Assembly: GCA_050485365.1 (NCBI GenBank)
Contig: JBJHBH010000001.1
Location: 1,101 to 65,100 of the forward strand
Direction of reading: 5' to 3'
DNA length: 64,000 bases
Source of the DNA: Desulfuromonadales bacterium
Lineage (GTDB): Bacteria > Desulfobacterota > Desulfuromonadia > Desulfuromonadales > JACZKF01
How positions within the stretch are numbered: position 1 is the first letter of the stretch; every line of letters starts with the position of its first letter. Below, piece by piece: positions 22,494-50,005 of the stretch. Under the pieces are notes generated by a model that did no database searches, was not told the origin of the DNA, and saw only the letters and a program-made list of their open reading frames with translations. The position numbers and the translations under genes are program-made.

Positions 22494-22643
22494 CCCGATG
22501 CACTACGGCGGGTGGTAGGGTTCGCGGCACATTGTTCCCTTAATTACCGCAATGTTTCTAGCATATCGCCCCGAAAATGGCAAGAATCTTCCCCGATGCT
22601 TGCCTTGCAAGAAGCCCGTTTCCAAGGACCATAAGGGAACTGA

Positions 22644-27870: not shown

Positions 27871-28737
27871 ATGGAAGCACCACTCGATACCAGGGACGAC
27901 ATTAAGTGGGCGGCACGCAAGCGCCTTGAACTCATCGAGATGGAACTGTTCTGGTCCGGGCGGGTCAACCGGCAGACCTTGATGGGAAAAACCGGGATAT
28001 CCAAGGCGCAGGCCAGTGCCGACTTGGCCCAATACAAAAAGCTGGCAGACCACAACCTCGCCTACAACCTGACCGAAAAGACCTATCAGGTCACCCCCGT
28101 TTTCTCCCCCCTGTTCATCAACACCTCACCGCAGGTCTTTCTGGCTCAGCTTGCATTCGCCGGTGAGAATGCCGAACAGCTTCAGCTGCCCGCCCGTGAC
28201 ATCCAGCCGGCCCTTTTGCGGATTGTCGCCCAGGCGGTTCAGGCAGCCACCTGCGTGGATATCACCTATCAGTCCATGTCCTCCCCCGAGCCGAAAGCTC
28301 GCCTCATTGCGCCACACACCTTCGTCTCCGATGGCTGGCGCTGGCACGTGCGAGCCTACGATTTTCTGAGCGGCTCCTTTCGGGACTTCCTACTGGCCAG
28401 AGTTCTGCTGGCCGGGGAGTGTGCTGCACCGGGGAGGCCCAGGGAACAGCTCTGGTCGAAGGAGAACGATACCGAGTGGCAGACGAGGGTGCCATTGCGG
28501 ATCGTTCCTCACCCGGGGTTGAGCCCTCAACAGAAGGCGGTGGTGGCGAGCGACTTCGGCATGGTCGATGGCGAGGTGCTGTTTCCGGTCCGCCAGGCGT
28601 GCCTCTTTTACGTTTTGCGACAGCTCAGGCTCCTGGATGAATCGAAGAACCCGGCGGAGCAGCAGATCGTTCTGGCCAACAAGGCGGAAGTGTTGCCTCT
28701 GTTAAACAGGCCACTTCAAGGAGGGGACCTTGAGTGA
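27871..28737 (+). CDS. WYL-domain transcriptional regulator (CapW/BrxR-like; wHTH-WYL-WCX)
   Basis: RLELIEMELFWSGRVNRQTLM..GISKAQASADLAQY wHTH; ITYQSMS..LIAPH..DGWRWHVRAY..FRDFLLARV WYL core. Confidence 0.92.
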   Translation: MEAPLDTRDDIKWAARKRLELIEMELFWSGRVNRQTLMGKTGISKAQASADLAQYKKLADHNLAYNLTEKTYQVTPVFSPLFINTSPQVFLAQLAFAGENAEQLQLPARDIQPALLRIVAQAVQAATCVDITYQSMSSPEPKARLIAPHTFVSDGWRWHVRAYDFLSGSFRDFLLARVLLAGECAAPGRPREQLWSKENDTEWQTRVPLRIVPHPGLSPQQKAVVASDFGMVDGEVLFPVRQACLFYVLRQLRLLDESKNPAEQQIVLANKAEVLPLLNRPLQGGDLE

Positions 28738-30034
28738 TCCGGACCACCTGAGGGAGGAGAGCAGCCAGGAAGAGGTTCTGTCGGGATTCTTCCGTGAGGA
28801 TGTCATTCCGGAAGACCTTCCGATGCTTTTCCCCCTGCTGCAGGCGAAAGCCTCGGTTGAGGCTTTTTCGGCCCTATTCAGCGGGTCGCCCGCCAGTGTA
28901 CTGGTGCGGCTGATGATCCTGCGGGAAATCGGCCGCCGTGGCGACGATCCGCATTGGTCGCCCCGGGACATCGAGTCGATGTTCTCCTATGTGGATGAGA
29001 CGAAGCTCAAGAGTGCGATGCTGAGGCTGCGCAACAGCGGCATCCTGGTCTGGCTCTCGGATATCTCCCGCTACCAGTTGAGCCCCCTGGGGCGCATGGC
29101 GCTGTCCGCGCTGTCGACCATGATGAAGTTCGGTCAGGAAGAGGGGAGCGAGCTTGGCTACATCACTTCCCAGATCGCGGCCAGCCAGGCGATGGGGGAG
29201 GTCAATCCGGAAACGCTGGAACACCTGCTCTCCCGCCTCTCGGAACTCGATGACGAATTCAACCGGGCGATCGTCTCCGGTTCGGAATCCCGGATCAAAG
29301 CCGCCGAAAAGAAGCTCGACTCGGTCTGGAACTGGGTGGAGAAGGGCACCGAGGTCATGAAATTGGTGACCGACAGCCTTGATCTGGACCGGGGCGCCCA
29401 TCGCCTGGCGCAACAGATCGGCCGCCGGCAGAGCAAGCTGCTCAGCATGGCCTCCCGGTTCCAGAGCGAGTTGAACCTCATCGAGAAGAACAAGGTCCAC
29501 ATCGAACGCGGGCTCTCCAGCAGCGACATCCTGCACTGGTTGCAGGGACAGCCGGTGAAGGCGTTGGCTTCGATTCTGGACGGGGCCATGGTCCATACCC
29601 CCTCGCCCGGGTTCGTGCTCAGTGACATCGCCGTGGATATCGCCGAGGACATGCTGATCCACCGCGATGTCTCCGAATTGGACGAATCGATTCCGCCGTT
29701 GCCGGACCAGGAGGACGCCAAGGCGATCGATCTGGAGCCCATCGACTTCCGCGCCCTTGGCTCCCTGCAGTCGGATTTAACGGTCGTGAAGGAATCCACG
29801 CCGCTTCAGGAACTGGTGCCCAAGAAGGATTTTGGAACGACCTCCTACCGGCTCTCCCTGATTGCCCTGATTGGCCGGGCCGGCGATGTGGCCGAGGGCA
29901 ACCCGGTAAAGGGGTTGGTGGATCTGCCGATCGACATGGAAATTGCGGAATCGGGAGAAATCGTCCGGATCGGACGGTGTGGCGTGAAGGAAATGACCGC
30001 AGGGTATTTGCATCGTAAAGGAGAGGGGCAGTGA
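28730..30034 (+). CDS. Kleisin-like subunit of a Wadjet/Mks-type SMC system (JetA/MksF-like)
   Basis: N-terminal wHTH (SAMLRLRNSGIL..YQLSPLGR), helical bundle; first of four genes with KITE-like, SMC and Toprim genes. TTG start with AGGAGG SD. Confidence 0.7.
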   Translation: MSDPDHLREESSQEEVLSGFFREDVIPEDLPMLFPLLQAKASVEAFSALFSGSPASVLVRLMILREIGRRGDDPHWSPRDIESMFSYVDETKLKSAMLRLRNSGILVWLSDISRYQLSPLGRMALSALSTMMKFGQEEGSELGYITSQIAASQAMGEVNPETLEHLLSRLSELDDEFNRAIVSGSESRIKAAEKKLDSVWNWVEKGTEVMKLVTDSLDLDRGAHRLAQQIGRRQSKLLSMASRFQSELNLIEKNKVHIERGLSSSDILHWLQGQPVKALASILDGAMVHTPSPGFVLSDIAVDIAEDMLIHRDVSELDESIPPLPDQEDAKAIDLEPIDFRALGSLQSDLTVVKESTPLQELVPKKDFGTTSYRLSLIALIGRAGDVAEGNPVKGLVDLPIDMEIAESGEIVRIGRCGVKEMTAGYLHRKGEGQ

Positions 30035-30726
30035 TAGAGTCACCGGCGCAAGTGCTGGCCGCACGGCTGATCGCCATGCAGTGGTTGCCGCGCAAGGATG
30101 AGCAGGTTACGCGCCTGATCACCGACGAAATCTTTCGGGAAGATGTTCTGGCGCGTCTTAAGTCATGCGGGTTGTGTCTCCTTGAGAACCCCTTTGCCGA
30201 ACACGTGGCTGTTGGGCTCGACGAATCGTCGACGCAGGCGGTCATGGGGCGGGATACAAGCTACATCTCGAACACCTTTGGCCTGCGGCAGGATGCTATG
30301 GCCCTGCTGGTGATCCTCTGGGCGCTGCTGATCATTCCCAAACGACAAAAGCAACTCGACGCCAGCACCGAGAGTGAAGAGACGGAGCAGATGGAATTTT
30401 TCCCCTCCCCCAGACTGGTTTCCCGGGAAGAATTTGACCGGCCGGCCGTCAAGCTCAGTGCGCTCATCTCCGATTTTGGTGGGAAGCTGGGCAAGAAGCA
30501 GCGCATCAACATCAACCTGGGACAGCTGAAGCGGCTCGGGTTCGTGTCCCAGCACAAGGAGCTGATCACGGAAGGGCCGCTCCTGGATCTGGCCTTCGAC
30601 TACAAACACATGGCCTCCCGGATCATCGAAGGGGCCTTGGGCGATATCCTGAAAGACCCGGACCTCGCGCCCACGGCCGATGAAGATCAGGAGGATTTTG
30701 AAGAAGTGGAGGGGGAGGATGTTTGA
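30031..30726 (+). CDS. KITE-like subunit (JetB/MksE-like)
   Basis: 231 aa, two wHTH-like halves (LGQLKRLGFV..GPLLDLAFDY), position between kleisin-like and SMC genes, GTGA overlap. Confidence 0.68.
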   Translation: MIESPAQVLAARLIAMQWLPRKDEQVTRLITDEIFREDVLARLKSCGLCLLENPFAEHVAVGLDESSTQAVMGRDTSYISNTFGLRQDAMALLVILWALLIIPKRQKQLDASTESEETEQMEFFPSPRLVSREEFDRPAVKLSALISDFGGKLGKKQRININLGQLKRLGFVSQHKELITEGPLLDLAFDYKHMASRIIEGALGDILKDPDLAPTADEDQEDFEEVEGEDV

Positions 30727-33532
30727 GTTCAGATACTTCGAGGCGGTGCATTGGGATTTCTGGGAGCGGATCGCTCTGCCCTTCGATGGCCAGCTGCTGA
30801 CCATCGTCGGACCGAATGGCTCGGGGAAAACTACCCTCCTCGACGGCCTGAGAACCCTGCTCGGAATCGACTGCTCCTCCGAGCGCGATTACCGGCGGTA
30901 CGTGCGCCGCAGCCAGAAGCCGGTCGCCTGGCTACGGGCGGTGGTCAGCAATGCCAAGACGGCCCGGGGCCTTCACTCTTTCCACCCCTGCTACACCCCC
31001 GAGGTGACCCTGGTCTGTCGCGTGAAACGCAAGGGGGGTGATTGGAGCCGTGAGTATGCCGTCTTGCCGGGCAACGTCCCGATCGAGGAGGCCGAGGCCA
31101 AGGCGGGCAAGGACTGGTATGGACAGAAGGACTATCGAAACCTCCTGGAGCGGGCGGGACTGGGTCGGGCGATTCGCAAGGTGCTGACCTTGGAACAGGG
31201 CGCCACGGACAAGCTCTGCACCATGAAGTCGCGGGAACTTCTGACTCTGGTTTTCGAGGCCCACGGGGATCAGGAGATCCTCGACAAATATCAGGAAGCC
31301 AAAAACGAGCAGATGACCATCCAGCAGGAGATCGAGGGTCTGAAGCAGGACCTGACCAAGCTGGAGTTGGATGTCAAACTCAACCAAAACAAGGTTGAGT
31401 CATACAATGAGTGGAAACGGCGCAAAGAGCAGCTAGAACGGCTGGTCCTGGAAGATATTCCCCGGCTGGAACTCTTGGAGCAAACCGAGCAGGCAAGGGC
31501 CGGGAGAAACCAGCTGAAAAGTCATCGCCGTGAGCTGAGAAAACTTCAGCATGATCTGGCAGAAAGACGACTTCATCGGCAAAGTATTAACCGGCAGTTG
31601 CAGGAAGCTACGAACCAATTGAACTTTTGGGATGCCGAAGAAAAGAAAAGGCGGGATGATCGCAATAAGGCATCAAATGCCGTCGACGAGCTGAAAAAAA
31701 TTCTTGTGGAAAAGGCCCGTTTGGAAGCTGTCCAGAAACAACAGGTCGAAGGATTCGATCCCGACAGAGTAACTGCGGACAAGACTCGTTTCGAGCTGGA
31801 ACATGCCGAAACCGTTAATCAAATAAAAAAGCTTGAGAAGGAGCTTAAAGACGCTCGCGCTCGCCAGACCGCCCTCCAGGCCACCCATACCAAAGAACTG
31901 TCGCCGCCGGCGCAACGCATGCGGGAAGCCCTTTCCGCCAAAGACATTCCGCACCTGTTTTTCTCCGAAGTCGTTGAAATTATCCTGCCCGAGTGGCAGC
32001 CCGTCATCGAGGGATTGATCGGCGGCGATGCCAATACGGTTCTTCTCGACCGGTCACAGGATAAGACCACCGCCTTTTCGGTCGGTGAGGAGCAGAGGTA
32101 CCGGGGTTTGGTCACCACGGACCAGATGGAGCGCCCCACCCCGCGGCCAGGCTCTTTGCTGGAAGCGGTGGAGTTCCATGCCCCGGTCCCCTCCTGGATC
32201 ATTTCTCGCCTGGATCAGACCCAGCGGGTCGAAGATGCCCAGGCCGGAGCCGCGCTTCCCGCCGGGCAGAACTGGGCCTCCCGCAAGGGTTACTACAAGG
32301 ACAACCGCGGTGGTCGCTACATCGCGGCCGATGTGAAAAGAGAGTATCAATTTGGCAAGGCCGCCGTCTTGGCCGAAATCGAGGATCTTGAGGAGACCAT
32401 TCAACGAGGCAAGAAGGAAATCATTAGGCTAGAGGATCTCAAGACGGAACTTAACGGGAAGATCGCTGACTGCACCTTGCTGCTGGAGGGCTGGGATGCC
32501 GATGCCAACCTGAAGGCTCGAATGGCCGAGTTTGTTCAAGCCGCCAATGATTTGCCGGGCAAGAAAGCCGCTTTAGAAGAAACTGAGGCGAGATTGCGCG
32601 AAGCAGAAAAGGCAGAGGGCGAAGCAAAAAAATCCTTCGATGCCTTCAATAAGGCATCAGGTCAAGTCGATACCCAAATCAAGGAAAAAGAAAAGCAGGC
32701 CGATGATGCTGAAAAGAAGATAGCGGAGAAGAGAAAAGATGTTAGCGCCTTGATTTTGCTGTGTCGGCAAACACGAAAGAAATTTGCCCCCCATCTGCGT
32801 ACGCCTGAACTCCTTCAATCTATCCTGGCTGAGTATGATTCCCTGGCCAGTGCCAAGGCTGAGAGCAAATCCCTGCAGTCCGACCTTGATAATCGAGAGT
32901 GGGAAAAGGATCCTCAAGTCCTCATCATCGCCCAGAAACTTCAAAAGGATTACGAGGCCAAAAAGACGGTCATCGACCAGCGGCGGGCACACCACGTGCG
33001 GGCACTGACCCTGACGGAACAGGCGCGGGAGCAATACATCAATGTCCTCTACGCGACCCTGCGCAACTACATCCGAAGCATTCGAACCCTGGGGGAGATG
33101 GCCGGAGTCGAAATTCTTGCTACCCTGCCCAAACTGGAGAACGACGACCTGAGCCTGGCGCAGGCAGGGCTGGATGTCGAGTTCCGCTTCGACCAGAAGG
33201 AGACCGACGAAACCTCCGGTGGCCAGAAGGTCATCAAGAGTCTGGTCCTTCTGGTCGGATTGATGATGGACAAGGACGAGCAGTCGGGCGGTTTTGTGTT
33301 CATCGATGAACCGTTCGCCCACCTGGATGTCCTCAACATCAACCTGGTCAGCAATTTCCTGCGGCGCAGCGGAGCGCAGTATGTTCTGACCACCCCCAAT
33401 ACCCACAACATCAACGTCTTCGATGCCTCCGACCTGACCTTTGTGACCCGGAGTTGGAAAGCTCCTGCCAAATGGGCACCGCCGGTGGCTTGGGCGCGCC
33501 GGCAGGAGACCGGCGATGAGGCCGTCGCATGA
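30719..33532 (+). CDS. SMC-family ATPase, 937 aa (JetC/MksB-like)
   Basis: Walker A GPNGSGKT, Q-loop LEQG, long coiled coils around a central hinge, signature TSGGQK, Walker B FVFIDEPFAHLD. Start at MFEFRY. Confidence 0.9.
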   Translation: MFEFRYFEAVHWDFWERIALPFDGQLLTIVGPNGSGKTTLLDGLRTLLGIDCSSERDYRRYVRRSQKPVAWLRAVVSNAKTARGLHSFHPCYTPEVTLVCRVKRKGGDWSREYAVLPGNVPIEEAEAKAGKDWYGQKDYRNLLERAGLGRAIRKVLTLEQGATDKLCTMKSRELLTLVFEAHGDQEILDKYQEAKNEQMTIQQEIEGLKQDLTKLELDVKLNQNKVESYNEWKRRKEQLERLVLEDIPRLELLEQTEQARAGRNQLKSHRRELRKLQHDLAERRLHRQSINRQLQEATNQLNFWDAEEKKRRDDRNKASNAVDELKKILVEKARLEAVQKQQVEGFDPDRVTADKTRFELEHAETVNQIKKLEKELKDARARQTALQATHTKELSPPAQRMREALSAKDIPHLFFSEVVEIILPEWQPVIEGLIGGDANTVLLDRSQDKTTAFSVGEEQRYRGLVTTDQMERPTPRPGSLLEAVEFHAPVPSWIISRLDQTQRVEDAQAGAALPAGQNWASRKGYYKDNRGGRYIAADVKREYQFGKAAVLAEIEDLEETIQRGKKEIIRLEDLKTELNGKIADCTLLLEGWDADANLKARMAEFVQAANDLPGKKAALEETEARLREAEKAEGEAKKSFDAFNKASGQVDTQIKEKEKQADDAEKKIAEKRKDVSALILLCRQTRKKFAPHLRTPELLQSILAEYDSLASAKAESKSLQSDLDNREWEKDPQVLIIAQKLQKDYEAKKTVIDQRRAHHVRALTLTEQAREQYINVLYATLRNYIRSIRTLGEMAGVEILATLPKLENDDLSLAQAGLDVEFRFDQKETDETSGGQKVIKSLVLLVGLMMDKDEQSGGFVFIDEPFAHLDVLNINLVSNFLRRSGAQYVLTTPNTHNINVFDASDLTFVTRSWKAPAKWAPPVAWARRQETGDEAVA

Positions 33533-34743
33533 GCGAGCACTGGTCACCTCCTGATGCGCAGGGGATCATCACCCTGACCCTCGATGTCGGCGCCAAACGA
33601 ACGATGCGCGGGAAACGGCGCCGGCGGTCGGTTCTGGAAAATCCCGCCAGCCTTGCGATGCTTGCTGAGGATCAGAAGGAGCTGATTCGCGGCTGGGTGA
33701 AAGGAGCCTCCTACCGCCGAAAGTGGCAAAACCTGCTTGCCACTGGCGGGTATGCCAATGTTCTGCTGGCAGAAGAGTTGCTCAGGATACTGCTGGAAGC
33801 CGGCTGGGTGGAAATTGAGGAGCATCGGACTCCACGCGGCTGGGAACCGGTATGGATCGAGTTCCGGGGGTATGAGGATCTGCGGGAACACCTGGGGCTG
33901 AGCAATCGCGACAAGGAGAGGGCTCAGGCTGACAGCCTGCCAGGGGACTTCTCAACGGATGCACTACGGATTGCTGCCGCCCAATTGGATACGCTTCCGG
34001 CTGCCACCAAGATCAAACGACACGAACTCCTCTCCGGGCTGGAGAACTGGATGCAGGAAGGCCTGCAGGGGACCCGGCGAGATTTTTCCCTGTTCGTTCG
34101 GGGCCGGACGAAGGATATTACGGCCGCCGAATGGGACTGGCTGGAATCCCAGTTGGACCTTGCGTCCTTCGGCGTTAGCGCGCACACGCCCCTGGTCCGC
34201 ATCAAGATCCCGGGGGCTCTAATCTTCCCGGAGGGGCAGGTGGATTTTCGGATGCTGCCGGGAGCGGTGGCGCTCACTCAAGAGCAGATCACCCGAGCGG
34301 CTGCCTTTGCGGGAGAAATTTCCTGCTGGAAGGTGGTCGAGAACCTGACCAGCTTTGAGCGGGTCGTGGCGTCATCAGGAGAAGCCGAAGGGGTCATCTG
34401 GGTGCCGGGCTTTGCCCCTTCCTGGTGGGTTCAGGCGGTTGCCCATCTGGTTGCAATGACAAAGGCTCCAGGGAGAGTCGCCTGTGATCCCGATCCGGCC
34501 GGCCTGCTGATCGCGTCGCAGGTGGGTGATATCTGGGAACGGCAAAGCGCCGCATGGGAGCCTTGGTTTATGAGTCCGGATGATTTTCAGGATAAAGGAA
34601 TTTCGATGTCGCTTACCGAGCATGACCGGGGTTTGCTCAACACTTTCATGCAAAGGCAGTATAATCACGCCAAACTATTGGAATTAGCATGCTGGATGAT
34701 AGGAAAAGGGAATAAATTAGAACAGGAGTCATTTTTGGTTTAG
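33529..34743 (+). CDS. Toprim (TopoVI-A-like) nuclease, JetD/MksG-like
   Basis: VVENLTSFE (catalytic Glu), VIWVPGF, CDPDPAG (DxD), terminal LEQE; ATGA overlap with the SMC gene. Confidence 0.85.
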   Translation: MSEHWSPPDAQGIITLTLDVGAKRTMRGKRRRRSVLENPASLAMLAEDQKELIRGWVKGASYRRKWQNLLATGGYANVLLAEELLRILLEAGWVEIEEHRTPRGWEPVWIEFRGYEDLREHLGLSNRDKERAQADSLPGDFSTDALRIAAAQLDTLPAATKIKRHELLSGLENWMQEGLQGTRRDFSLFVRGRTKDITAAEWDWLESQLDLASFGVSAHTPLVRIKIPGALIFPEGQVDFRMLPGAVALTQEQITRAAAFAGEISCWKVVENLTSFERVVASSGEAEGVIWVPGFAPSWWVQAVAHLVAMTKAPGRVACDPDPAGLLIASQVGDIWERQSAAWEPWFMSPDDFQDKGISMSLTEHDRGLLNTFMQRQYNHAKLLELACWMIGKGNKLEQESFLV

Positions 34744-34844
34744 AGGTCCTCATCAACAGATTTCGTTAATTGTGAACCGTCTTGCCGAAGTACCACATCG
34801 ATTTACACGCTTACGTCGCGGCCGGACCGGGGGCCAGATTGAAA

Positions 34845-35660
34845 TTAATCTGCGGTTTGTCCATATGCCTCAGCACGCAGTCTTTTCAAGAACTTCTCCA
34901 GTCCTTGGCGCGGGTCGCTCTCCTCTGACACGATTGGCTCTATTCCTCTTGAACGAAGTATCTCCTCTTGAATGAGGTTAGGTCTAGCTAAAAAGATGTA
35001 AGATCGAGGCCTTACACGTTCAAAGAATGATGTTTGCCATTGCCTATGCAACTTGTATAGCAAGTATCTGATGTTAATGTCGGTTAGGCTGTATCCTATA
35101 AACAAGATGGACTTACCAAGGGCATCTGACCGCAGCTTGATGTCCAGCGGGGATTCGAAACTCAATCGATCGAAATAACTTGATTCTGAGAGTACTATTG
35201 AAGAGTCATCATCGAAGTCCCCATGCAACTTAACTATTTGAGTGTGCTTTTGCTGGGCAAGGGCGATATCGGCGACGTTGGCAATTTTCGTGTACTGAGA
35301 ACCTGCTTTTTCAAATGTCTTTTCAATCAAACGGTCATAGTTAGTCGTGTATATAATCGGAAAATCCAATGCCACTATTGCTTTGTGTACTTCTGATTTC
35401 TCCACATCAACTTGGCTGTCATGCCACTTCCGGTCCATCCAACTCCGGAGAGGACCGAGTGTGCCCTTCTTCAGAATGTAATATTCCGCTAATGAGAGGT
35501 AGTCTCCAGATAATTGAAAAACTTGAGGGTCAAAATCAAGCTCTTCGGCTAGTCTGTCGATAAGTTCGCTAAATGAGGGCAACTGAAGGTTCATGGAAAC
35601 CCCAGCACCAGCGAACAAGATTACTTTTTTATCCCTTATCGCCTGAATTAGATCCTGCAT
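34845..35660 (-). CDS. SIR2-like NADase (KomC-like)
   Basis: LFAGAGVSM..LPSFSEL, IYTTNYD, KLHGD, LFIGYSLTD. Confidence 0.92.
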   Translation of the reverse strand: MQDLIQAIRDKKVILFAGAGVSMNLQLPSFSELIDRLAEELDFDPQVFQLSGDYLSLAEYYILKKGTLGPLRSWMDRKWHDSQVDVEKSEVHKAIVALDFPIIYTTNYDRLIEKTFEKAGSQYTKIANVADIALAQQKHTQIVKLHGDFDDDSSIVLSESSYFDRLSFESPLDIKLRSDALGKSILFIGYSLTDINIRYLLYKLHRQWQTSFFERVRPRSYIFLARPNLIQEEILRSRGIEPIVSEESDPRQGLEKFLKRLRAEAYGQTAD

Positions 35661-35661
35661 T

Positions 35662-36222
35662 TCAAGCCCTCCCGCGCTTTCTCAAGAAACCTGCAAAAGC
35701 ATCTAACGCGCTTCGTCGCATTGAAATTTCATTCTTTTTCTCGCCAAGTTCAGCGAATGTCTGTTCATATCCATGTGGAATAAAAACACAGTCCCATTGA
35801 AAGTCTCTATTCCCTCGAGGTTCCGAGGCGATCGTTCCTGCGATCTCCCCTTCAAAGAGATAGAATTGTTTTCCATCAACGTAGCCGATTATCGTTCTTG
35901 CTACTACACTGTTATCCGGCGCTTTGCCGAACAGTTCAGCGAATCGGTCTGCTTGAAGCGTGTCCCAGAAGATCTGCGTCAGTCCCCCTGGAAGGCCGTT
36001 CATGTAACTGAGATAGAGTCCCGTATGCTCAACAAACAAAGGCCGGCCGATTTGCTGAAATGCCTTCAAAGCCTTATCTTTTACCAGACGTTTTGTGTCT
36101 TCAGTCTGAAGTTCTTCAACCTTGAGACTTACAGGAATAACCATGACTCCTGCGCCCGAAAGGATTTGTTCCGACTCAGCTATTTTAAAGCGATTACTTG
36201 ACAGGAACCGGACTTGCAGCAT
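35662..36222 (-). CDS. HAM1/ITPase-fold protein with degenerate catalytic residues (KomB-like)
   Basis: SSNRFKIAE, KDKALKA, VEHTGL (canonical VEDT/ADDS), NGLPG, DFQWDCVF, EISMR (canonical SHR). Start ATG 36222 with GCGGAG SD. Confidence 0.9.
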   Translation of the reverse strand: MLQVRFLSSNRFKIAESEQILSGAGVMVIPVSLKVEELQTEDTKRLVKDKALKAFQQIGRPLFVEHTGLYLSYMNGLPGGLTQIFWDTLQADRFAELFGKAPDNSVVARTIIGYVDGKQFYLFEGEIAGTIASEPRGNRDFQWDCVFIPHGYEQTFAELGEKKNEISMRRSALDAFAGFLRKRGRA

Positions 36223-36224
36223 GG

Positions 36225-37820
36225 TCAGACTCCGCATAAGCAGAAATTCAAGTCGATGGCCAGGACCTTTGTAATCAAATTACCTAGCTCCATATCGTGC
36301 ATTCCTGGTTTGAACTCCCAAACTCCCGCTCCATACTGATTGATGTACTCCTTCGAGAACCATCCGGCCGTATCCTCCGACCGGGCTGGTGAAAGAAGCA
36401 AGACGGCTTGGCAGGTCCCGCCGAAACTGTCATATCTGAGGGCATCGCGATAGATGTGCACCGAAGAAAAGGAGTCAGCAAGGTTCTGGCGACCAACGCG
36501 GTATTTTGCGTCCAAGCAGAGCCATCTGCCCTCGCCATTCTTTGGCTGATAACTGATAGTGATGTCAGGCCGGCGCTCGCCGGAGATGGACCATCGTTTG
36601 TGGTTGGAGCGGTTAAAGTAGCTGGCGAACGTCGCGTTGAATCTGATCTCAACCGTACCCCCCGATACGTCTTGAGCTCTGAACAATGCACCATCGCCGG
36701 TGGAGCAGGGGTCCAGCAGATTCGAAAGCTTGCAGCCCGCCCATTTCCAATCAGGCAAGGCCGCCCGCATCTGCCGGCAGACCGCCAGAAACGCCCACAG
36801 CTCGTAGACGGAATAGCTAGGCCGCACCGCGGCTTGATATGCGCTCTGCTGGGTTTCGTAGCGGAACAGCGGATTCAGAAAAAGCCGACCAATCTGGTGG
36901 ACCTGCAGGTATGTCGGGTCGTCGAAGACGACCTGCAGCGCAGCCTCGCTCAGGGGCTCACGCTGAATTCGGCTCAGGAAAGACCTTCGCCACAACTGCA
37001 GGAGGCGATCGGCTCCCTTTCGCAGCGCGTTGGCTCTACTCCGGCACCAGAGCTGACTGTCTTCAGAACCCTTTGCTGCCGCCCTATCCAGACCATCTGC
37101 CGCTCTGCAAAGGGTGGATTCGACCTCGTAGACTAGCCAAGAGATGTAGCGGTTTGCGGGATGGTCGATGATCTCGACCGTCAGCCGCTGTGAAATCAGC
37201 GGTGCGGGGCCTGGCAATGCCAGGCTTTTCCAAGGGTCAAGGTGTTCTTGGAGTTGAGGGTGCCGAGTGACCCACCGCAGCGTCTCTCGATCAACTTTCC
37301 TGACCATGCGTAGCGGTATGTCATCCTGGATGGTGATGTCCCGCTGTCTTGGGTTTTCAAGGAGAACCTGGAGGGCGCGTTCGAAAACCGTCAATAAGGG
37401 TGTCAGCGCTTCCGCAATGAAGGGAAGAGGAACTCCCTCTTTGCCTACGTTGCCTGACTTGCCTCCCTCCGTCCCCGCCGAAACCCCTGGTAGCCAGTTC
37501 TCCAGATCGGTCAACATGCCTATCCAGAGTGTATCGGTAAGCTTGGACTGACGCGGCTGCACCCTCACCGGTATGGAGATAACCTGATCTGGCGACGCCT
37601 GTATGCGCAGTTCGGCATCGGCAATCCAATGCCCAGGTCGTATCGTCAAGGTGCCTTGGGGATTTGGCTGAACCTTTATTCCATCGAAAAATAACTCAAA
37701 GGCACCGCTCTCTTCAGATAGGATTTGGTACTCGACCATCTCCTCCAGAAGTAGTTTTGCCCCAGGCTGAACGGGAATGATCTTTCCGTTCGGCCGTCGT
37801 TGTAATGCCAGGCTAATCAT
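36225..37820 (-). CDS. McrC-like nuclease (DUF2357 + PD-(D/E)XK)
   Basis: DHPANRYI, DDPTY..I, YELWAFL, RPDITI..LCLDAKYR..IHIYRDAL. Confidence 0.85.
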   Translation of the reverse strand: MISLALQRRPNGKIIPVQPGAKLLLEEMVEYQILSEESGAFELFFDGIKVQPNPQGTLTIRPGHWIADAELRIQASPDQVISIPVRVQPRQSKLTDTLWIGMLTDLENWLPGVSAGTEGGKSGNVGKEGVPLPFIAEALTPLLTVFERALQVLLENPRQRDITIQDDIPLRMVRKVDRETLRWVTRHPQLQEHLDPWKSLALPGPAPLISQRLTVEIIDHPANRYISWLVYEVESTLCRAADGLDRAAAKGSEDSQLWCRSRANALRKGADRLLQLWRRSFLSRIQREPLSEAALQVVFDDPTYLQVHQIGRLFLNPLFRYETQQSAYQAAVRPSYSVYELWAFLAVCRQMRAALPDWKWAGCKLSNLLDPCSTGDGALFRAQDVSGGTVEIRFNATFASYFNRSNHKRWSISGERRPDITISYQPKNGEGRWLCLDAKYRVGRQNLADSFSSVHIYRDALRYDSFGGTCQAVLLLSPARSEDTAGWFSKEYINQYGAGVWEFKPGMHDMELGNLITKVLAIDLNFCLCGV

Positions 37821-40141
37821 GCCCAGAACCGGGTGATTCCCGTCGTTGAGAGTTGGTCATTCATCCGCTTGATCTTCGCAGTGCATGCCTCCAGGTTGTG
37901 GTCTTCGCAAATTTTTCCGATTTGCAACAGAGTGTCAGTCAAGAGCGCTCCCTCGCCCCGGATTCGCGGCAGGATTTTGGAGAAAAAAGCCTGATCGACG
38001 AGCGACCAATACTTGGACTGAGTTTCATCGAGCGGTCCATCTGCGGTATCCAAAAAGTCGAGGATCTCTCCTGCCGTACGGTATCCAAAGTGACGACGAA
38101 TTCGAAAGAGTAGACTGTTTAGCTGGAGCAGGAGTGTCTCTACTCTTTGTTTCCTCTGATTCCCGTTTTCGGAAGCACGGCGCTCGAAGAACTCTTCCAG
38201 ACGAACATCCCAGAACTCCATCGTAAACGCCCGATCTAAGACCTTGTCACTGAAAGGGTGAGTGGTTTCGTCCATATTGACAGTGCCGCCAATGAACAGG
38301 TTGCTGGGCCAACGGATGCTTGGCGGGACTCCGTTGACCGGATCATCATTGGCATGGAGAACTAAGCGCTCCCCTGTTTCCATGGAAGAAAGAAATGGGG
38401 CGAAATAGCGCTCCACGCGGGCCAAGTTCATTTCGTCTAGGATCAGGAAATACGGAAACTGTGGATTTTTCGCAGTTGAAAGGACTAGGCGCAGCGCCGG
38501 CTCGATCTGGAATGTTGGGTCGGCATGAAGGGCATTGAAGTACCCTAAAATTCCAGAAGGGTCGCGCCAGTCTGGAGAGACAGCGACAACTGCCTGATGC
38601 TGCTGTGGGTCCAACTCAAGAGATTTGCAATAGATTCTGGAATAGTGGCACAGAAGAGCCGTTTTGCCTGTCCCAGACAGTCCGGAGAGGATGGCAAAGC
38701 GTTTGCGGGGATTGCAGTGCCAGGCAAGGTGGAGGGCCTCAACCTGTCTTTCCGTGAAAACGAAACCTTTTAGATCTTGATCCTGGCAGAACTTCTGCCA
38801 GACGGCAGAAGATGTCAGCCCGGAGAACGTTCCCCTTTCGACCTCCTCCTCATCGATCTCAAGTAACGTTTCCTCAAGCAGCCCCTGTTCCTCTGGGGTC
38901 TGTAGTCTCTCCGGGAGCCTTTTGGCCCAGCTTTTCCCATAATCCGAAAGTTTGACTTTGCCATTAGCATCGAAATCTACAATCCCCAGTGATTTCAACC
39001 AGGCAAGGAGAGCATTTGGCATAAAGTTCGATGTCCAACGAGGATACAACTCTCGCAGGTAGCTGAAGAGGTCTTTCTTGGAAACCTCTCCTTCACCCTC
39101 TACTTTTTGAACCAGATGAGCAAACCCGAAGGCTTGGATGAACAGCTTTTCGACCAGGATATTGGCGGGATCATCCTCGACAAGCTCTTCCCCCGCCTCT
39201 GATGGATGCCAGAGGCCGTTTTTGTTTTCGAGAAAACCCAGATTTCGGACCATATTAAAGATTTGCCGGCAAGATGAAGAAGAGTACTTGGCAAATTCAG
39301 GTGTAGCTTTTAGGGTTTCAACCAAATCCTCAGGCGTTGCTCCCCCTCGCGCTACCGTAATCAGCATTCGGAAAGCTTCAAGATAACTGCTGATCGCCGG
39401 GAAACCCCGTCTTTGTTTTGTGATCGACCACAGTTTAAGCTTTTGAGGGGCCTGTTCCTCATCTTCTAGTGTGTCTGGCCTACGTGCCCCCTCCTCTTTG
39501 TCGACCATTACAGGGGGAGTTTGGCCCTGCTGAAGCGATTCGTATTTCGTATGTAACCACCAGCAGAACATTGACCGCCAGATATGCTCATCTTGAGTGT
39601 CTTCCTTTCCAAGGGCCTCTCGGATTCGCGATCTGACCCTAACCCCACCCTCACAGAAAGAAAAGTTTGTGGTTCCGAGGACGAGTTCGTGAAGATGTTT
39701 TCTGGATTGCCATTGATAGCAGGTGTGGAGGTCTTCAGGAAAAAGGGCAGTGAGAAGACGGCTGAGCTTGGCCTGAGGTCTTTGTGTGGCGTGAGTGCCA
39801 TAGATCATGTCCATGATCTGGTCATAGGCATCACTAAACGCTTTGGCTCGCTTTTGTATATCATCAGGCCAAGACTTTTTCCGGATGTCCAGCAACGCCT
39901 GCGCAACCTGTTGATCGGTGTAGGCAGATTTTACATTGACCGCTTCTCCTGCTCCAATCCCACTGACACCCTTTGCCCGCCAAAGTTTCTCTTGATTCCC
40001 AGGCTCTAGAAACTCCTGCTCGGAAAGTGATTTGAAATACTGAACGTCACGCAAGTAATCGTTATGCCATTCTCTCCAAGGAGATTGCTCGCGGAATTTC
40101 TTGTACAGTTCCTGAAGTTTGGTTGCCTCTAGTACAGCCAT
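37817..40141 (-). CDS. McrB-like AAA+ NTPase with ~430-aa N-terminal reader region
   Basis: Walker A GLSGTGKT, VAVSPDWRD, Walker B LILDEMNLARVERYFA, McrB signature GTVNMDE, DKVLDRAF. Confidence 0.9.
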   Translation of the reverse strand: MAVLEATKLQELYKKFREQSPWREWHNDYLRDVQYFKSLSEQEFLEPGNQEKLWRAKGVSGIGAGEAVNVKSAYTDQQVAQALLDIRKKSWPDDIQKRAKAFSDAYDQIMDMIYGTHATQRPQAKLSRLLTALFPEDLHTCYQWQSRKHLHELVLGTTNFSFCEGGVRVRSRIREALGKEDTQDEHIWRSMFCWWLHTKYESLQQGQTPPVMVDKEEGARRPDTLEDEEQAPQKLKLWSITKQRRGFPAISSYLEAFRMLITVARGGATPEDLVETLKATPEFAKYSSSSCRQIFNMVRNLGFLENKNGLWHPSEAGEELVEDDPANILVEKLFIQAFGFAHLVQKVEGEGEVSKKDLFSYLRELYPRWTSNFMPNALLAWLKSLGIVDFDANGKVKLSDYGKSWAKRLPERLQTPEEQGLLEETLLEIDEEEVERGTFSGLTSSAVWQKFCQDQDLKGFVFTERQVEALHLAWHCNPRKRFAILSGLSGTGKTALLCHYSRIYCKSLELDPQQHQAVVAVSPDWRDPSGILGYFNALHADPTFQIEPALRLVLSTAKNPQFPYFLILDEMNLARVERYFAPFLSSMETGERLVLHANDDPVNGVPPSIRWPSNLFIGGTVNMDETTHPFSDKVLDRAFTMEFWDVRLEEFFERRASENGNQRKQRVETLLLQLNSLLFRIRRHFGYRTAGEILDFLDTADGPLDETQSKYWSLVDQAFFSKILPRIRGEGALLTDTLLQIGKICEDHNLEACTAKIKRMNDQLSTTGITRFWA

Positions 40142-40508
40142 GGTTCTCCCTTTGGTAGGTTGGCGTTATTTGAAGGTTTCAATGCGGGAGGATCACAAAT
40201 AGTGGGCGGCGACTTGGAAGATGCCGCCATGAATGGTGCGTTGGGGGTTCTTGGAGGTAGACTGCGACAGGGTCAGGACGACGATTGGCCGAAAGTTGCC
40301 TTCCGGGACATGGTACTAGGCAGTTCCGCGTCTGGGAAAAGCATACTGCCTTTCGGCAACGGCGCCCATGAGGATTGATGTCAAACGTTGAGAACTGTGA
40401 TCGCCCATTCCCGGCCCCCCTCCCTATGACGAAAATTAAGAAAACCTAGGCTAACATGTTTAATTTTTTCAATGAAGTAAAAAGTGAAATGCGCAATGGG
40501 GGCCTCAC

Positions 40509-41459
40509 TTATTGGGAATTATCTACCATCGCAGAATGGCCAGTTGGGGTGGCTGAAAATTTCCTAACAGTCTTAGCAATTTCGCGAAGAACGTCTTCTT
40601 CGCAACTAAACACATCCTTAAAGATGATAGGTCCTTCAGAAAGTGTTGGAGGATCATCCCTAATATCAGAATAATGTTTGGATAAGACATCTTTTCCGCT
40701 CAATGTTGGAACAGATTGTCCATTAATATAGGTTGCGGTTATGGATAATTTTACTACTTTTAAAGAAGATCTCTCAATCATTGAAATCAAGTAATTGACA
40801 GCCGCATTTTCTTCCAGGATATCCTCAGGCATTATTGAAAATAAAAACTTTTCCTGAGGGGATGCCCTGTCGGCCACCAACAAAAGTCTTCTAAGCTTTT
40901 CAACCAAAATTGACCTTTTCTTTCCAGTGTGCTTAACGCTTTGCTTCCATTTGATAGGAGTGCAATGTACTGCAATATCTCCATCAGACCATTTCTTTAA
41001 GCTTTCTCTAGCCCTCGCTTTCACAAAATCATTTCCACGGTATTGTCTTAGACTCAAATCCATCCCGTAAGCGAACAGCCCGTAGATATGGTTTTTGTAA
41101 GTGCTTGTTCTGTCATCTTGCCTAACTCCAAGAGTTAGGCGATCTGGTTTAAACGTCTTAATGTACCGATCCATTGGCCAGCACAAAAGGCGTTCGAACT
41201 CAAGAAATACTCTAAATCTTATGGCTTTATTACGGGCACTTTCAATTCGTTCATTTAGGTATTCGGGTTTTTGTAGCAAATCCCTAATTCTTCTCGCCGA
41301 AATTCCCACTTCTGTGGACAATTTTTCGATTTTTCTTACTCGTATTCCTTTCGAATATGAATTGCTTCGGTCCTCACTTAAAAACTCCCTAATCCTCTCA
41401 AGGTCTTCTAATTTGAGAGCCGCCTTTTGGTTTTGGGGGGTCATCCTCGGTTCCTGCAT
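40509..41459 (-). CDS. AT-rich orphan protein, possible N-terminal HTH
   Basis: Long ORF with very low GC; KLSTEVGISARRIRDLL helix-turn-helix-like. Start uncertain (41459 or 41444). Confidence 0.55.
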   Translation of the reverse strand: MQEPRMTPQNQKAALKLEDLERIREFLSEDRSNSYSKGIRVRKIEKLSTEVGISARRIRDLLQKPEYLNERIESARNKAIRFRVFLEFERLLCWPMDRYIKTFKPDRLTLGVRQDDRTSTYKNHIYGLFAYGMDLSLRQYRGNDFVKARARESLKKWSDGDIAVHCTPIKWKQSVKHTGKKRSILVEKLRRLLLVADRASPQEKFLFSIMPEDILEENAAVNYLISMIERSSLKVVKLSITATYINGQSVPTLSGKDVLSKHYSDIRDDPPTLSEGPIIFKDVFSCEEDVLREIAKTVRKFSATPTGHSAMVDNSQ

Positions 41460-41633
41460 ATAGTGAAGTGATTTTTTTGGAAAATTGTTGCAGAAAATTA
41501 CTTGGGAGACAAGCCGTATTTCGCGTCGCAGCGTTGTAAGTACCCGAAGTGAAAGAAAAAACTCCTTGATATGGAATTCAGCGCACCCTATTCTGAGCTT
41601 CCCAATCAAGGGCAAACACGAAGGAGGAGGTAG

Positions 41634-44904: not shown

Positions 44905-45165
44905 GCAAGGCTGGACGGATGCGGTCCGCGAGTATTTGGGGGTTGCACATTTCGTAGACTTCGAGCATTTGTAGTCTCAATGAATTAAAGTGATTTTCAA
45001 TAAGGCTGTTCTTCCCGGGTGGAGGAACAGCCTTATTTTTTTCTGAGGTGGTGCCGCTCAGGTGAATAATTTTTTATTGACTTTCCTGGGCGGACGGTTA
45101 AATATTTCGGAAATAAAGCAACATCATTTTTCGCCGGCAAACTAGCCGGCAAGATGGAGAGTGCA

Positions 45166-45981
45166 ATGGGCGGGCTGTTTTTGAATGCCTTTAAAGGTTT
45201 AGATCCTTTGGTTCTCAAGGGGCTAGGGGTTCGACTGGGCGACAAGGGGACCCAAACCAGCCGGACCATCATGTTCGAGGAACTGCAGCATCTTTTGGCG
45301 GCGGTCCCGGGAAAAGCTGGGCGTGAAAGCTATGCGAACGCCGTCCTGGAAGACAATTGCCTGGGGAAGAGGACCGCGTCCACCCGGGCTTTGAGTCTTC
45401 AGCGCCTTTGTGAACTCTACGCTCTTGACCCTGGGGTGCCCCTTTTTCGGGTCATGCGCGACCTCTGGATTATCAACGAAACGAGTCGGCCCCTCCTGGC
45501 CCTCCTCCTAGCTCTTGCTCGTGACCCCCTTCTCCGAATCACTGCGACTCCCGTGATCGCGACCCCCTTCGGCAAAGAATTCGCCCGCCAAGCCATGACA
45601 GATGCCTTGGAGTCTGCCGTTGGCGATCGCCTGAACGAATCAACTCTCGACAAGGTGGTGCGCAACGCCTCATCCTCCTGGACCCAGTCCGGGCACCTGC
45701 AAGGCCGGGCGCGAAAGTTTCGGCATCAGGTTCAGCCAACCCCGACGGCATGTGCTTTTGCTCTTTTTATCGGCTATTTCCTTGGCAAACGTGGCCCACT
45801 CCTGTTTGAAACTGCCTGGTGCAAGGTTCTCGACCTTTCCACGGCCGAAATTGCCGAGCTGGCGCACGACGCCAAACGCCTGGGCCTTTTGGAAATTAAG
45901 CAGTCCGGCACGATCGTCGATATTTCCTTCCCGGCGCTACTCACCGATAAAGACAGGGAGCTGATCCATGGGTCGCATTGA
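45166..45981 (+). CDS. BREX BrxA-like DNA-binding protein
   Basis: First gene of the BREX operon; NCLGKRTASTR..L.ELY, SSWTQSGHL; GGAGA SD before ATG 45166. Confidence 0.7.
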   Translation: MGGLFLNAFKGLDPLVLKGLGVRLGDKGTQTSRTIMFEELQHLLAAVPGKAGRESYANAVLEDNCLGKRTASTRALSLQRLCELYALDPGVPLFRVMRDLWIINETSRPLLALLLALARDPLLRITATPVIATPFGKEFARQAMTDALESAVGDRLNESTLDKVVRNASSSWTQSGHLQGRARKFRHQVQPTPTACAFALFIGYFLGKRGPLLFETAWCKVLDLSTAEIAELAHDAKRLGLLEIKQSGTIVDISFPALLTDKDRELIHGSH

Positions 45982-46531
45982 GAAACTGGTCGATCGATAC
46001 CAGCGTTATATTTCTCTGCCCTGGCAAAAGGATCTCGCCGGCGCGCAGCGGGCGGTTTTCGTCGTGTACCACAAGAATGACGAGCGCCGGATGCGTGCTC
46101 GCCTTGAGCTCTTTGCCCTGGCCACTAAGGAGGCCGGCCATGGATGGAAGGTCTGTGACCTGACGACCGCCTTTTCGACCTGGATGTCCGGCATCGATTA
46201 TCGGGATTCCTATTTCGAGGATCCCGAAAGTCTTGAATTGAAGCTGGAGGAAGACTTTTTGGATTTTGTCGCCCAACGGCTTCGAGATGCCTTGAGCGCT
46301 GCTGACGTAGATGACCAGACAGTCGTTGGCGTCTATGGACTCGCTTCCCTATTCGGCTTTGCCCGGGTTTCGGAGGTTATGGCGAAAATTGAAAAGAGCA
46401 TCCGGGGGCGGCTGCTGGTGCTCTTCCCCGGTGAGTACGACAACAACAACTACCGTCTTCTGGATGCTCGCGATGGGTGGAACTATCACGCCATACCGAT
46501 CACGCTGCACCAGGAACTGTTTGAATCCTGA
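45968..46531 (+). CDS. brxB: BREX protein BrxB (DUF1788)
   Basis: VGVYGLASLFGFARVS..GRLLVLFPGEY..YRLLDARDGWNYHA. Confidence 0.88.
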   Translation: MGRIEKLVDRYQRYISLPWQKDLAGAQRAVFVVYHKNDERRMRARLELFALATKEAGHGWKVCDLTTAFSTWMSGIDYRDSYFEDPESLELKLEEDFLDFVAQRLRDALSAADVDDQTVVGVYGLASLFGFARVSEVMAKIEKSIRGRLLVLFPGEYDNNNYRLLDARDGWNYHAIPITLHQELFES

Positions 46532-46546
46532 GGAGGGAGGACCCTT

Positions 46547-49500
46547 ATGAAAAACCGTGACGTTTTCCAGCGCGACCCTGGCAAAATCACCCTGCTGAAC
46601 AATGGGGTGGCGGCAATGACCGATGCACTGACGGATGAAGAACGAAAAACGCTGCGCTTCGAACTTGAACATTTCGTCTGCGAAGGCGAGTACCAACGAG
46701 GCCTTGTGCGCATCCTCAATTCCTATGTCAGCAACATGGGGCAATCGGAGCAGCCAGCGGCCTGGATCAGCGGCTTCTTCGGTAGCGGCAAATCCCATCT
46801 CGCCAAGATGCTGCACTATCTCTGGATCGACTACACCTTTGCCGAAGACGGGGCCACCGCCCGGGGACTGGCCCACCTGCCGGATGACGTCAAGGATCTG
46901 TTGCGGGAGATTTCGACTCTCGGCAAGCGGGAGGGAGGTCTGCATGCCGCCTCGGGGACTCTGGGCGCCGGCGCCGGCGACAGTGTGCGGCTCGCGCTGT
47001 TGGGAATCATCTTCCGCTCGGCAGGTCTGCCCGAAAGTTATCCCCAGGCTCGCTTTTGCATGTGGCTGCGCAAAAACGGCATCTACGATCAGGTCTGCTC
47101 CGATGTCGAGGCCGCCGGCCGCAACTTCCGTAAGGAACTCAACGACCTGTATGTGAGCCCAGTCATTGCCAAGGCCCTTCTAAAGGCCGATCCCTCCTTT
47201 GCCTCCGACGAACCCGGAGCCAAGGCCAGCCTGCGCGCCCAGTTTGCCAAGCCGAAGGACATCAGCAACGAGGAATTCGTTCTGGCCGTGCAGGATGCCC
47301 TGATGGTGGATGGAAAAATGCCCTGCACCGCGGTGATTCTGGACGAGGTCCAGCAGTACATCGGCGACGACACCAGCCGCTCCTACACCGTGCAGGAGGT
47401 TGCCGAGGCCTGCAGCAAGCGCTTCGGCGACGCCCTCCTTTTCGTCGGTACCGGGCAGACGGCTCTCTCCGGCATTCCCGCCCTCCAGCGTCTCCAGGGG
47501 CGCTTTACGGTGAATGTCGAGCTGTCGGACAGCGATGTTGAGACGGTCACCCGCCGGGTCGTGCTGGCCAAGCGTGCAGATCGCGTCGGAGAGGTCGAAA
47601 AAAAGTTGGACGAAAATTCCGGAGAGGTCGATCGGCACCTGAAGGGAACCCGGATCGAACCTCGCAGCGAAGATCATGCGGTTCTGACTGAGGACTACCC
47701 TCTGCTCCCGGTGCGCCGTCGTTTCTGGGAACAGGCCCTGCGGGCGGTTGACAAGGCCGGCACCGCCGGGCAGCTGCGGACCCAGTTGCGGATCGTTTAC
47801 GACGCCATCCGCAAGACAGCGGACGAACCCCTGGGTACCGTGGTGCCGGCGGATTTTCTCTTCGACGAAATCTCGGCCAACCTCCTGCAAACGGGGGTGC
47901 TGCTGCGTGAAATCGACGAAATCATCCGCAAGCAGGACGACGGCACGGCCGATGGGCGGCTCAGGTCTCGTCTGTGTGCCCTGGTTTTCCTGATCCGCAA
48001 GCTCCCCCGCGAGGCCGCAATCGACAGCGGAGTTCGGGCGACTCCGGACATGCTCGCCGATCTCCTGGTCGAGGACCTCTCCTGCGACGGCACCGCTTTG
48101 CGCATCAAGATTCCCCAGTTACTGGAAGAGCTGGTCGGCAAGGGGACCTTGATGAAGGTCGACAGCGGGGAGTACAGCCTGCAGACGAAGGAGAGCAGTG
48201 AATGGGAACAGGAGTTCCGCTCCCGGGAATCCAAGCTGTTGAACGATGTCACCCGGATGACCAGTAAGCGCAGCCAACTGCTGTCGGCCGCGTGTCAGAG
48301 CGCCATCTCTTCGGTGAAGCTGGCGCAAGGAAAATGCAAGGAGCCGCGCAGGCTCCTGCTCCATTTCGGTCAAGATGCCCCCGTGGAAAACAATCAGGAC
48401 GTTCCGGTCTGGATTCGTGACGAATGGGGGACGGACGAAAAGACGATGCTCGACGATGCCCGCGCCGCCGGCACCGACAGCCCCGTTCTGCACATCTTCA
48501 TTCCCAAAATCCAGGCCGAGCCGCTCAGGAAGCGGATTGCCGAGCAGGACGCCGCCAAGGGGACCCTCGACTTCAAGGGGGTGCCCACCACCCGCGAAGG
48601 AATTGAAGCCCGGGAGGCCATGCAGACCCGCCTGACCGAGGCTAGCCAGGGCCTCAATTCTCTGGTCAAGGAGATCATCGACAGCGCCAAGGTTTTCCAG
48701 GGCGGCGGCAACGAGCGCCTTGAGCTGACCCTGCTGGAGAAAACCCAAGAGGCGGCCAGAGCCTCATTGGATCGCATGTTCCCCGAGTTCAAGGATGCCG
48801 ACGACGCCCGCTGGAACAAGGTCATCCAGCAGGCCCGCGGCGGTGCCGAGAACCCCCTCGAAGCGGTCGACCACAAGGACAAGATCGACAAGCACCCGGT
48901 CTGCGCGGCTGTACTCACCTACGTGGGAAGCGGTAAAAAGGGAAAAGAGGTCCGAATCCATCTTGCAGACGCCCCCTACGGCTGGCCCCGGGATGCCGTC
49001 GATGCGGCCCTTATAAGTCTTTTTGCCTCGGGCCACCTGGCTGCATCCATCAATGGGGTGCCGCTCAAGCTCAAGGAAATCGACCAGAACAAAATTCCCG
49101 TCACCGATTTCCGGAGAGAAACGGCAACTATTGGGGCCAAGGATAAGATCAAGCTCCGGGGCCTCTATCAAGCGGCCGGGGTCCCCTGTAAGCCGAATGA
49201 GGAGATCGCCGGCGCCGGGGACTTCCTGAGCCGCCTGCTCTCTCTGGCCCAGGGTGCCGGCGGCGAACCGCCGTTGCCGGAGCGGCCGAAGACCGATCAC
49301 ATTTCGAAGCTGCAGTCCCTGGCCGGCAATGAGCAGCTCTCCGGCATCCTGGAGAAGCATGACGTGCTGAAGGCGAATGCCGAGGCATGGGAGAAGGCCA
49401 AATCCCTGGCCGAGAAGCGGCTGCCTGTCTATCGCAAGGTCCAGGACCTGCTGCGTCATGCCAAGGGGCAGCCCTTCGCCGCCTCTTTGCAGTCCCAACT

Positions 49501-49993: not shown

Positions 49994-50005
49994 GGAGGGG
50001 AGAGT

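Follow-up and report, generated by a model that had tools for sequence, protein, structure and literature searches.

The closest described relative of one half of the locus analysed here is Kongming, the KomABC defence system of Escherichia coli NCTC13216 (Zeng et al., bioRxiv 10.1101/2024.12.20.629578; structures in PMC13454610). Its signal precursor is dAMP from DNA breakdown: KomA deaminates dAMP and, weakly, dADP, a phage dNMP kinase and the host NDK finish deoxyinosine triphosphate (dITP), and dITP turns KomBC filaments into an NADase (PMC13454610). The Kongming authors call the association with KomA ‘less conserved’ and place KomBC also beside nucleotidases, UDG, NTPases, methyltransferases and RADAR-like genes (10.1101/2024.12.20.629578, section 11, fig. 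S19), so that KomA-less KomBC with other partners is already on record. The other half of the locus recalls the NxD branch of the McrBC family, of which no member has been characterised (Bell et al., 2024, eLife, PMC11090510). Genes of both kinds stand in one row at 34845–40141 of a 64 000-nucleotide stretch (hereafter the window) of contig JBJHBH010000001.1, which belongs to the metagenome-assembled genome of a Desulfuromonadales bacterium from mine tailings (GCA_050485365.1; 3.6 Mb; estimated 100% complete, 3.8% contamination). A first reading of the bare sequence (the original prediction) had taken them for an undescribed, functionally wired two-layer system. We find that modules of two known kinds stand side by side here in a single instance, and hold with moderate confidence that two defence modules of two genes each, independent and separately mobile, were stacked head to tail on an integrative element and are probably co-transcribed.

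Structure of the four-gene block

The block spans 5.3 kb and consists of four tightly packed open reading frames (ORFs) on the minus strand, in the order McrB-like (37817–40141, 774 aa), McrC-like (36225–37820, 531 aa), HAM1 (35662–36237, 191 aa) and SIR2 (34845–35660, 271 aa). The McrB-like and McrC-like ORFs share 4 nt (37817–37820), the McrC-like stop codon TGA (36227–36225) is followed after a 2-nt gap by an ATG at 36222 that we take as the start of the HAM1 gene (35662..36222), and the stop of that gene, ending at 35662, lies 1 nt from the ATG of the SIR2 gene at 35660. The ORF list and a direct reading of the sequence both confirm the packing given in the original prediction. At the junction of the two modules (36222..36237, minus strand), which was likewise read directly and is spanned by a contig from a second assembler (see below), a GGAG at 36233–36230 lies 7 nt ahead of the ATG and within the last McrC-like codons; an alternative start, the ATG at 36237, would make the HAM1 gene overlap the McrC-like gene by 13 nt.

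The sole non-coding space ahead of the four genes is an intergenic region of 367 nt (40142..40508, minus strand), and it is for this reason that we presume the promoter to lie there. A GGGAG stands 5 nt before the McrB-like ATG, and a terminator-like hairpin at 40360–40345 belongs to the preceding ORF (40509–41615). Promoter and terminator scans, whose counts equalled shuffled expectation, gave no consensus promoter in 40142..40508, no promoter-like site in the final 300 nt of the McrC-like gene and no terminator-like hairpin after the SIR2 gene, and public sequencing runs that hold this sequence comprise one DNA run and no RNA run. Judging from the packing, the HAM1 and SIR2 genes are probably transcribed from the promoter of the McrBC-like pair.

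The HAM1 and SIR2 genes are komB and komC

The HAM1 protein matches Pfam Ham1p_like (6.5e-35) and the SIR2 protein matches Pfam SIR2_2 (8.8e-30) and is a ThsA-type SIR2 in PADLOC. Against the reference proteins of E. coli NCTC13216 (Table S1 of the Kongming preprint), the former shares 55% identity with KomB along its full length and the latter 59% with KomC in an alignment without gaps. By these comparisons the two genes are true orthologues of komB and komC, which sharpens the HAM1/SIR2 identification made at first sight. Using the functional residues listed in PMC13454610 and in the Kongming preprint (10.1101/2024.12.20.629578), we find that the VEHTGL of the window's KomB aligns with VEHTGL in E. 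coli, with His in place of the catalytic acid (H71 in the 191-aa ORF starting at 36237, equivalent to KomB H65), and that the equivalents of the dITP pocket are all kept (N9, K12, E15, K49, H65, T66, F140, Q141, W142 and R168). These pocket residues are invariant in 85 aligned KomB, whether KomA-linked or not, save for K49, which is kept in 84 of the 85. Two further residues, KomB R8 and H11, are changed to S and F, at positions that are variable across the family and vary in KomA-linked KomB as well (L006). In KomC the catalytic equivalents (H146, D194, N107) and the filament residues (R72, D76, R77 and the loop 148–152, DFDDD) are kept, and two interface positions differ among the published residues checked. 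The window's KomB is predicted to be a catalytically dead sensor of the ITPase fold, and because its pocket is conserved the expected ligand would still be dITP or something very close to it.

The module is therefore like that of Kongming in its komB–komC order and near-abutting genes, in the His that replaces the catalytic acid of KomB, and in its pocket, KomC His/Asp and filament residues. It is unlike Kongming in that KomA is missing from operon, window and genome alike, and in that komB, instead of standing behind komA, abuts the 3′ end of a gene of an unrelated kind.

The upstream genes are an McrBC-family pair

The first two genes are an McrBC-family pair, but not of a CHARACTERISED kind, and here too the names first given to them were right, as Pfam, profile, motif and Foldseek evidence agree. 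The McrB-like AAA+ GTPase has a weak Pfam match (AAA_16), a PADLOC match (PDC-M26A, 5e-34) and about 100 full-length homologues, some of them named ‘McrB family protein’. A profile from 22 of these homologues matches the McrB of Thermococcus gammatolerans (E 3.7e-4), and the top Foldseek matches of an AlphaFold2 model (mean predicted local distance difference test 79.7) are McrB AAA+ domains (6hz4, 6ut6). The model predicts a helical N-terminal domain (~1–204), two winged-helix-like domains (~253–313 and ~327–398) and the AAA+ motor (~460–774). The Walker A motif (G487–T494, GLSGTGKT), the Walker B motif (D569–E570) and a signature of the NxD type (N622-M-D624-E) are invariant in the 22 homologues. 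Residues 1–450 have no Pfam or NCBIfam match and correspond to no named modified-base reader, and the Foldseek matches cover the motor only.

The McrC-like protein matches PDDEXK_7 above the cut-off (37.9 bits, 2.4e-9) and DUF2357 below it (19.6 bits, 5.9e-4, against a cut-off of 23.3), the latter being listed without a weak mark in the homologue of locus L081. Its nuclease motif (P418-D419 … D437-x-K439) is conserved among 65 homologues, and an McrC-like gene lies directly downstream of the McrB-like gene in 77 of 85 loci. The final nine or so residues (DLNFCLCGV) are absent from the homologues, the shared alignment stopping at about residue 522. In the closest McrB-like relative (L194, 66% identity) the McrC-like gene, at 2443–3953 of a short contig, appears split into two frames (2467–3600 and 3606–3953), possibly through a frameshift or a mistake of assembly.

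The pair resembles NxD-branch McrBC in its overlapping mcrB–mcrC genes, its AAA+ GTPase with N-x-D-E, its DUF2357 with an intact PD-(D/E)xK nuclease and its place in a defence island; unlike CoCoNuT systems, it has no coiled coils, HEPN or tandem nucleases. With the McrBC of E. coli K-12 it shares the two-protein architecture and the fold of the motor domain (6hz4, 6ut6), the likeness being detectable by profiles only at the sequence level, and it differs in having NxD and an unrelated N-terminal region of 450 aa where the E. coli protein has NxxD and the DUF3578 reader of 5-methylcytosine. Cleavage of modified DNA by this pair may be proposed by analogy only, since the NxD branch has no characterised member and the N-terminal region matches no known reader.

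The arrangement does not recur

We looked for the four-gene arrangement from both sides. The KomB side comprised 94 loci (80 from species-representative genomes, 7 from metagenomes with the closest KomC relatives and 7 viral contigs) and the McrB side 92 (85 loci and 7 viral contigs), each side drawing on its 80 best loci, out of 161 for KomB and at least 423 for McrB-like. By tblastn and by family hidden Markov models built from 22 McrB-like and 65 McrC-like sequences, the McrB-like/McrC-like pair was found in none of the 94 KomBC loci (one weak AAA match, in L041, was the only hit), and neither KomB nor KomC was found in any of the 92 McrB-like loci, whose neighbours vary (type III restriction–modification, YjiT/YjiV-like genes and others). 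KomA, for its part, lies directly upstream of KomBC in 38 of the 80 species-level loci and not upstream in another 38, the remaining four being cut by a contig end. Of 400 sampled genomes of the phylum, 2 have KomC and 14 the McrB-like AAA+ protein, with no genome having both, and 40 genomes of the same genus, family and order gave no match to the 5.3-kb block beyond chance matches of ~100 nt. When the Pfam families of 117 genes around 30 KomA-less KomBC loci were tallied, the 25 families shown, which leave out those with a single member, included no DUF2357, PDDEXK_7 or AAA_5. The relatives at the shortest distance (P0108, P0113, P0001) lie on contigs that end too early to show the junction.

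The literature gives the same picture: we found no paper that treats both KomBC and McrBC, one preprint naming Kongming and McrB having been left aside, the McrBC census (PMC11090510) has no mention of SIR2 or HAM1, and the Kongming text and supplement contain no McrB or McrC in this sense, fig. S19A being an image that could not be read. Within these samples the arrangement is unique to the present locus, which speaks against the undescribed two-layer system that had been predicted.

No KomA-type deaminase in the genome

The absence of a deaminase next to the four genes or elsewhere in the window, as first reported, holds for the KomA type across the genome as well. KomA-type adenosine deaminases (PF00962) have no match in the 3.6 Mb, window included, E. 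coli KomA has none by tblastn at E<1, and a distant komA that might have supplied the signal was thus looked for and not found. RdrA and RdrB of a RADAR-like locus (L060, see below) also have no match in the genome. A deaminase of the cytidine deaminase (CDA) fold, taken from locus L175 (see below), matches only on contigs C28, C3 and C83, at 31–42% identity, in what are presumably housekeeping genes of the CDA fold. The signal for the window's KomBC would have to come in trans, from a phage or host activity.

History of the join

The two pairs differ in composition. The G+C content at third codon positions is 0.47 in komC and 0.44 in komB, against 0.64 in the mcrC-like and 0.54 in the mcrB-like gene (genome G+C, 0.636), and the nine C-terminal codons that are specific to this McrC-like protein hold the ribosome-binding site of komB. 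In a tree of KomB and KomC the window groups with L171/L173, L175, L007, L005, L001, L003 and L004, none of which has KomA (L001 and L003 are cut by a contig end upstream of komB), and from this we infer that KomA was lost before KomBC met McrBC. The neighbours of KomBC vary within this clade: they may be a CDA-fold deaminase, a DUF1156–DUF499 pair or nothing recognisable. DUF1156–DUF499 lies 40 nt upstream of KomBC in L171–174, where the closest KomC relatives are found (73%), and L171/L173, the nearest sisters of the window's KomBC, have no deaminase.

A further observation concerns what lies beside the two modules elsewhere. HU-like genes (Bac_DNA_binding/HU-HIG) that are 76% identical stand two genes after an McrBC-like pair in one locus (L083:11645–11920) and directly after KomBC in another (L171:7195–7473). 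Such a shared gene would make the two modules exchangeable cargo at a single site of related mobile elements, and points to a possible cargo hotspot that related conjugative or integrative elements have in common.

KomBC without KomA in other genomes

Several arrangements other than that of Kongming were seen among the KomBC loci. A stand-alone KomBC, lacking KomA, lies ~73 nt upstream of yebG at one syntenic site in many Pantoea species (the Pantoea/Erwinia loci L049, L054, L057, L063 and L066–L080, at ~10001–11850), and the conservation of this site suggests that selection maintains KomBC by itself. In Rahnella inusitata (L060:242–7254) a RADAR-like pair, a 914-aa AAA protein and a 921-aa protein with a weak adenosine-deaminase match, stands directly upstream of KomBC, in agreement with the association mentioned in the Kongming preprint. 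In a genome of the window's own phylum (G280; L196:166–2494) the order is komB–komC–komA, with a downstream KomA that is 39% identical to that of E. coli.

In L175–177 (L175:6441–8304) the stop of komC lies within a 4-nt overlap with the next gene, which encodes a deaminase of the CDA fold (159 aa; dCMP_cyt_deam_1/MafB19-deam; motifs H-A-E and PCxxC) and recurs behind KomA-less KomBC on several contigs that are unrelated to one another. The same deaminase follows komC in L002:4653–6524, where it is frameshifted, and in L011:10001–11546, at a contig end, and it lies 1.8 kb from komC in L009:5592–6065. We regard it as a candidate replacement for KomA as signal maker; this type may or may not be one of those that the Kongming authors draw in fig. 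S19. Flanks of KomA-less KomBC also include a deoxynucleoside kinase (dNK/thymidylate-kinase-like; 4 of the 117 genes) and a 5′-nucleotidase (2 of 117), both of them nucleotide enzymes encoded by the host, which might take part in signal making.

The window's KomBC is like the KomA-less types of the Kongming authors in lacking KomA, in lying in a defence island and in adjoining other genes, and our survey recovered comparable cases (RADAR-like in L060, CDA-fold deaminase in L175, dNK/5′-nucleotidase, DUF1156–DUF499 in L171). It is unlike them in that their partners are mostly nucleotide enzymes capable of making a signal, whereas an McrBC pair cannot make one; the preprint text has no McrBC type, fig. 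S19 being an unreadable image.

Stacked modules, an orphaned effector or a wired system

How, then, might the two pairs have come to stand together? On the reading we favour, each would work by itself. By analogy with McrBC, the NxD-branch pair would form an assembly that is powered by NTP and both binds and cleaves foreign nucleic acid. KomB, a dead ITPase, would bind dITP or a very similar 2′-deoxy-6-oxopurine triphosphate, and ligand-bound KomB would switch KomBC filaments to an active SIR2 NADase, so that NAD+ falls and the infection aborts. The KomBC lineage would have lost KomA before meeting McrBC, so that its signal would come in trans from an activity of phage or host, and recombination would then have put komB directly at the end of the mcrC-like gene. 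Since this join left komB without an upstream region of its own, the two pairs are probably co-transcribed, and their co-expression would be a by-product of island packing rather than evidence of a signalling link.

Several points weigh against this reading. The 2-nt gap and the position of the komB ribosome-binding site inside the mcrC-like gene leave no room for a separate promoter, whereas in most other KomBC loci without KomA the upstream space is 86 nt or more (four have 25–78 nt); expression is thus probably coupled to that of the mcrBC-like pair, and selection for joint expression is possible. The DUF1156–DUF499 pair 40 nt upstream of the closest relatives could mean that this lineage habitually sits on restriction-type operons for a functional reason. 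The KomBC half is incomplete, no signal generator having been found, and our samples are limited relative to the ~3,600 KomC clusters that exist.

A second explanation is that KomBC is an orphaned effector. Recombination behind the mcrC-like gene, beside a convergent Wadjet-like operon, would have cut komBC from its signal generator and left an intact module with no trigger in this host, a recent remnant that has not yet decayed. That a genome estimated to be 100% complete has neither KomA (PF00962) nor an RdrB-like deaminase fits this account, as do the 159-aa CDA-fold deaminase right after KomC in the same tree region (L175–177, L002, L011), the mere ~100 nt between komC and the end of the convergent jetD, and the low G+C, which with its little amelioration points to a probably recent arrival. 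We nonetheless consider it unlikely: both ORFs are intact with their functional residues kept, the stand-alone KomBC held at one Pantoea site suggests that the module can be useful without a partner in cis, and the nearest sisters, L171/L173, lack a deaminase too.

The wired system of the original prediction would have the McrBC-like pair sense or cut modified phage DNA while KomBC responds to a nucleotide that this action sets free or causes to be made, or guards McrBC from inhibitors of the phage, and depletes NAD+. The operon-like packing makes transcriptional and translational coupling likely, the closest KomBC relatives also sit behind a DNA-targeting system, and a nuclease could raise the pool of dAMP, the Kongming precursor that arises from DNA breakdown. 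This proposal nevertheless lacks a necessary step, because McrBC could do no more than enlarge dNMP pools and PF00962 enzymes are absent from the genome: the KomB pocket is a dITP pocket, neither McrB nor McrC can deaminate adenine, and with no KomA-type deaminase in the genome the conversion of dAMP to dIMP is missing. Moreover, the arrangement recurs in no sample, the composition differs between the pairs and the junction looks patched, and neither the McrBC census nor the Kongming papers know of such a link. We therefore judge a wired system to be quite improbable. A looser version, to which we give very little credence, is that KomA-less KomBC of this lineage attaches behind DNA-targeting systems, at their 3′ end, and is co-expressed with them as a backstop that works by abortive infection. 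Such a backstop, an equally doubtful corollary, would be triggered by a surge of deoxypurine nucleotides that follows nuclease action or takeover by a phage and is turned into dITP by some activity of phage or host.

Finally, that an assembler joined pairs from different organisms, as the 3.8% estimated contamination of a metagenome-assembled genome and the stepwise drop of G+C at the junction might suggest, is extremely improbable, and we reject such a chimera: a 3018-bp Logan contig, from the same sequencing run (hence not independent data) by another assembler, crosses the McrC/HAM1 junction at 35192–38209 with zero differences, and read depth is even (~10–11x) across 33500–41500.

The surrounding defence island

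The stacked modules lie in a defence island whose G+C content ranges from 0.40 to 0.62, against 0.636 for the genome. Convergent on komC, on the plus strand, are a WYL gene and a Wadjet-like JetABCD operon (27871–34743), the matches to JetC and JetD being weak only. On the other side, 367 nt upstream of the mcrB-like gene and on the same strand, is a 368-aa ORF (40509–41615, minus strand). Its G+C of 0.40 is the lowest in the island, it matched nothing in Pfam or PADLOC, and none of the 85 McrB-like loci holds a homologue. The island further holds a DUF3987/Toprim primase, a complete type 1 BREX system (45154–57859; BrxA, BrxB, BrxC, PglX, PglZ, BrxL), a Dsr1-like SIR2-DUF4020 gene 20 nt after brxL (57880–61437) and a tyrosine integrase (61523–62833); the window thus contains two SIR2 NADase effectors, komC and SIR2-DUF4020. 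A 65-nt direct repeat, 91% identical between its copies (20949–21013 and 22442–22506), resembles the 3′ end of a tRNA, and ARAGORN found no intact tRNA in the window. The repeats are probably stacked remnants of attachment sites.

Significance

Were the wiring true, it would link restriction to nucleotide-signalled depletion of NAD+ and supply a new class of upstream sensor for Kongming-type effectors. As two modules stacked side by side, the locus is instead a clean case of operon-like packing that comes from independent cargo, and a caution for predictions that argue from adjacency. What deserves attention is less the juxtaposition than the NxD McrBC subfamily and the origin of the signal where KomBC lacks KomA. 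Roughly half of KomBC modules are without KomA and yet have an unchanged dITP pocket, which sharpens the question of what makes the signal, and the locus flags a well-populated subfamily of NxD-type McrBC with a predicted double winged-helix N-terminal region.

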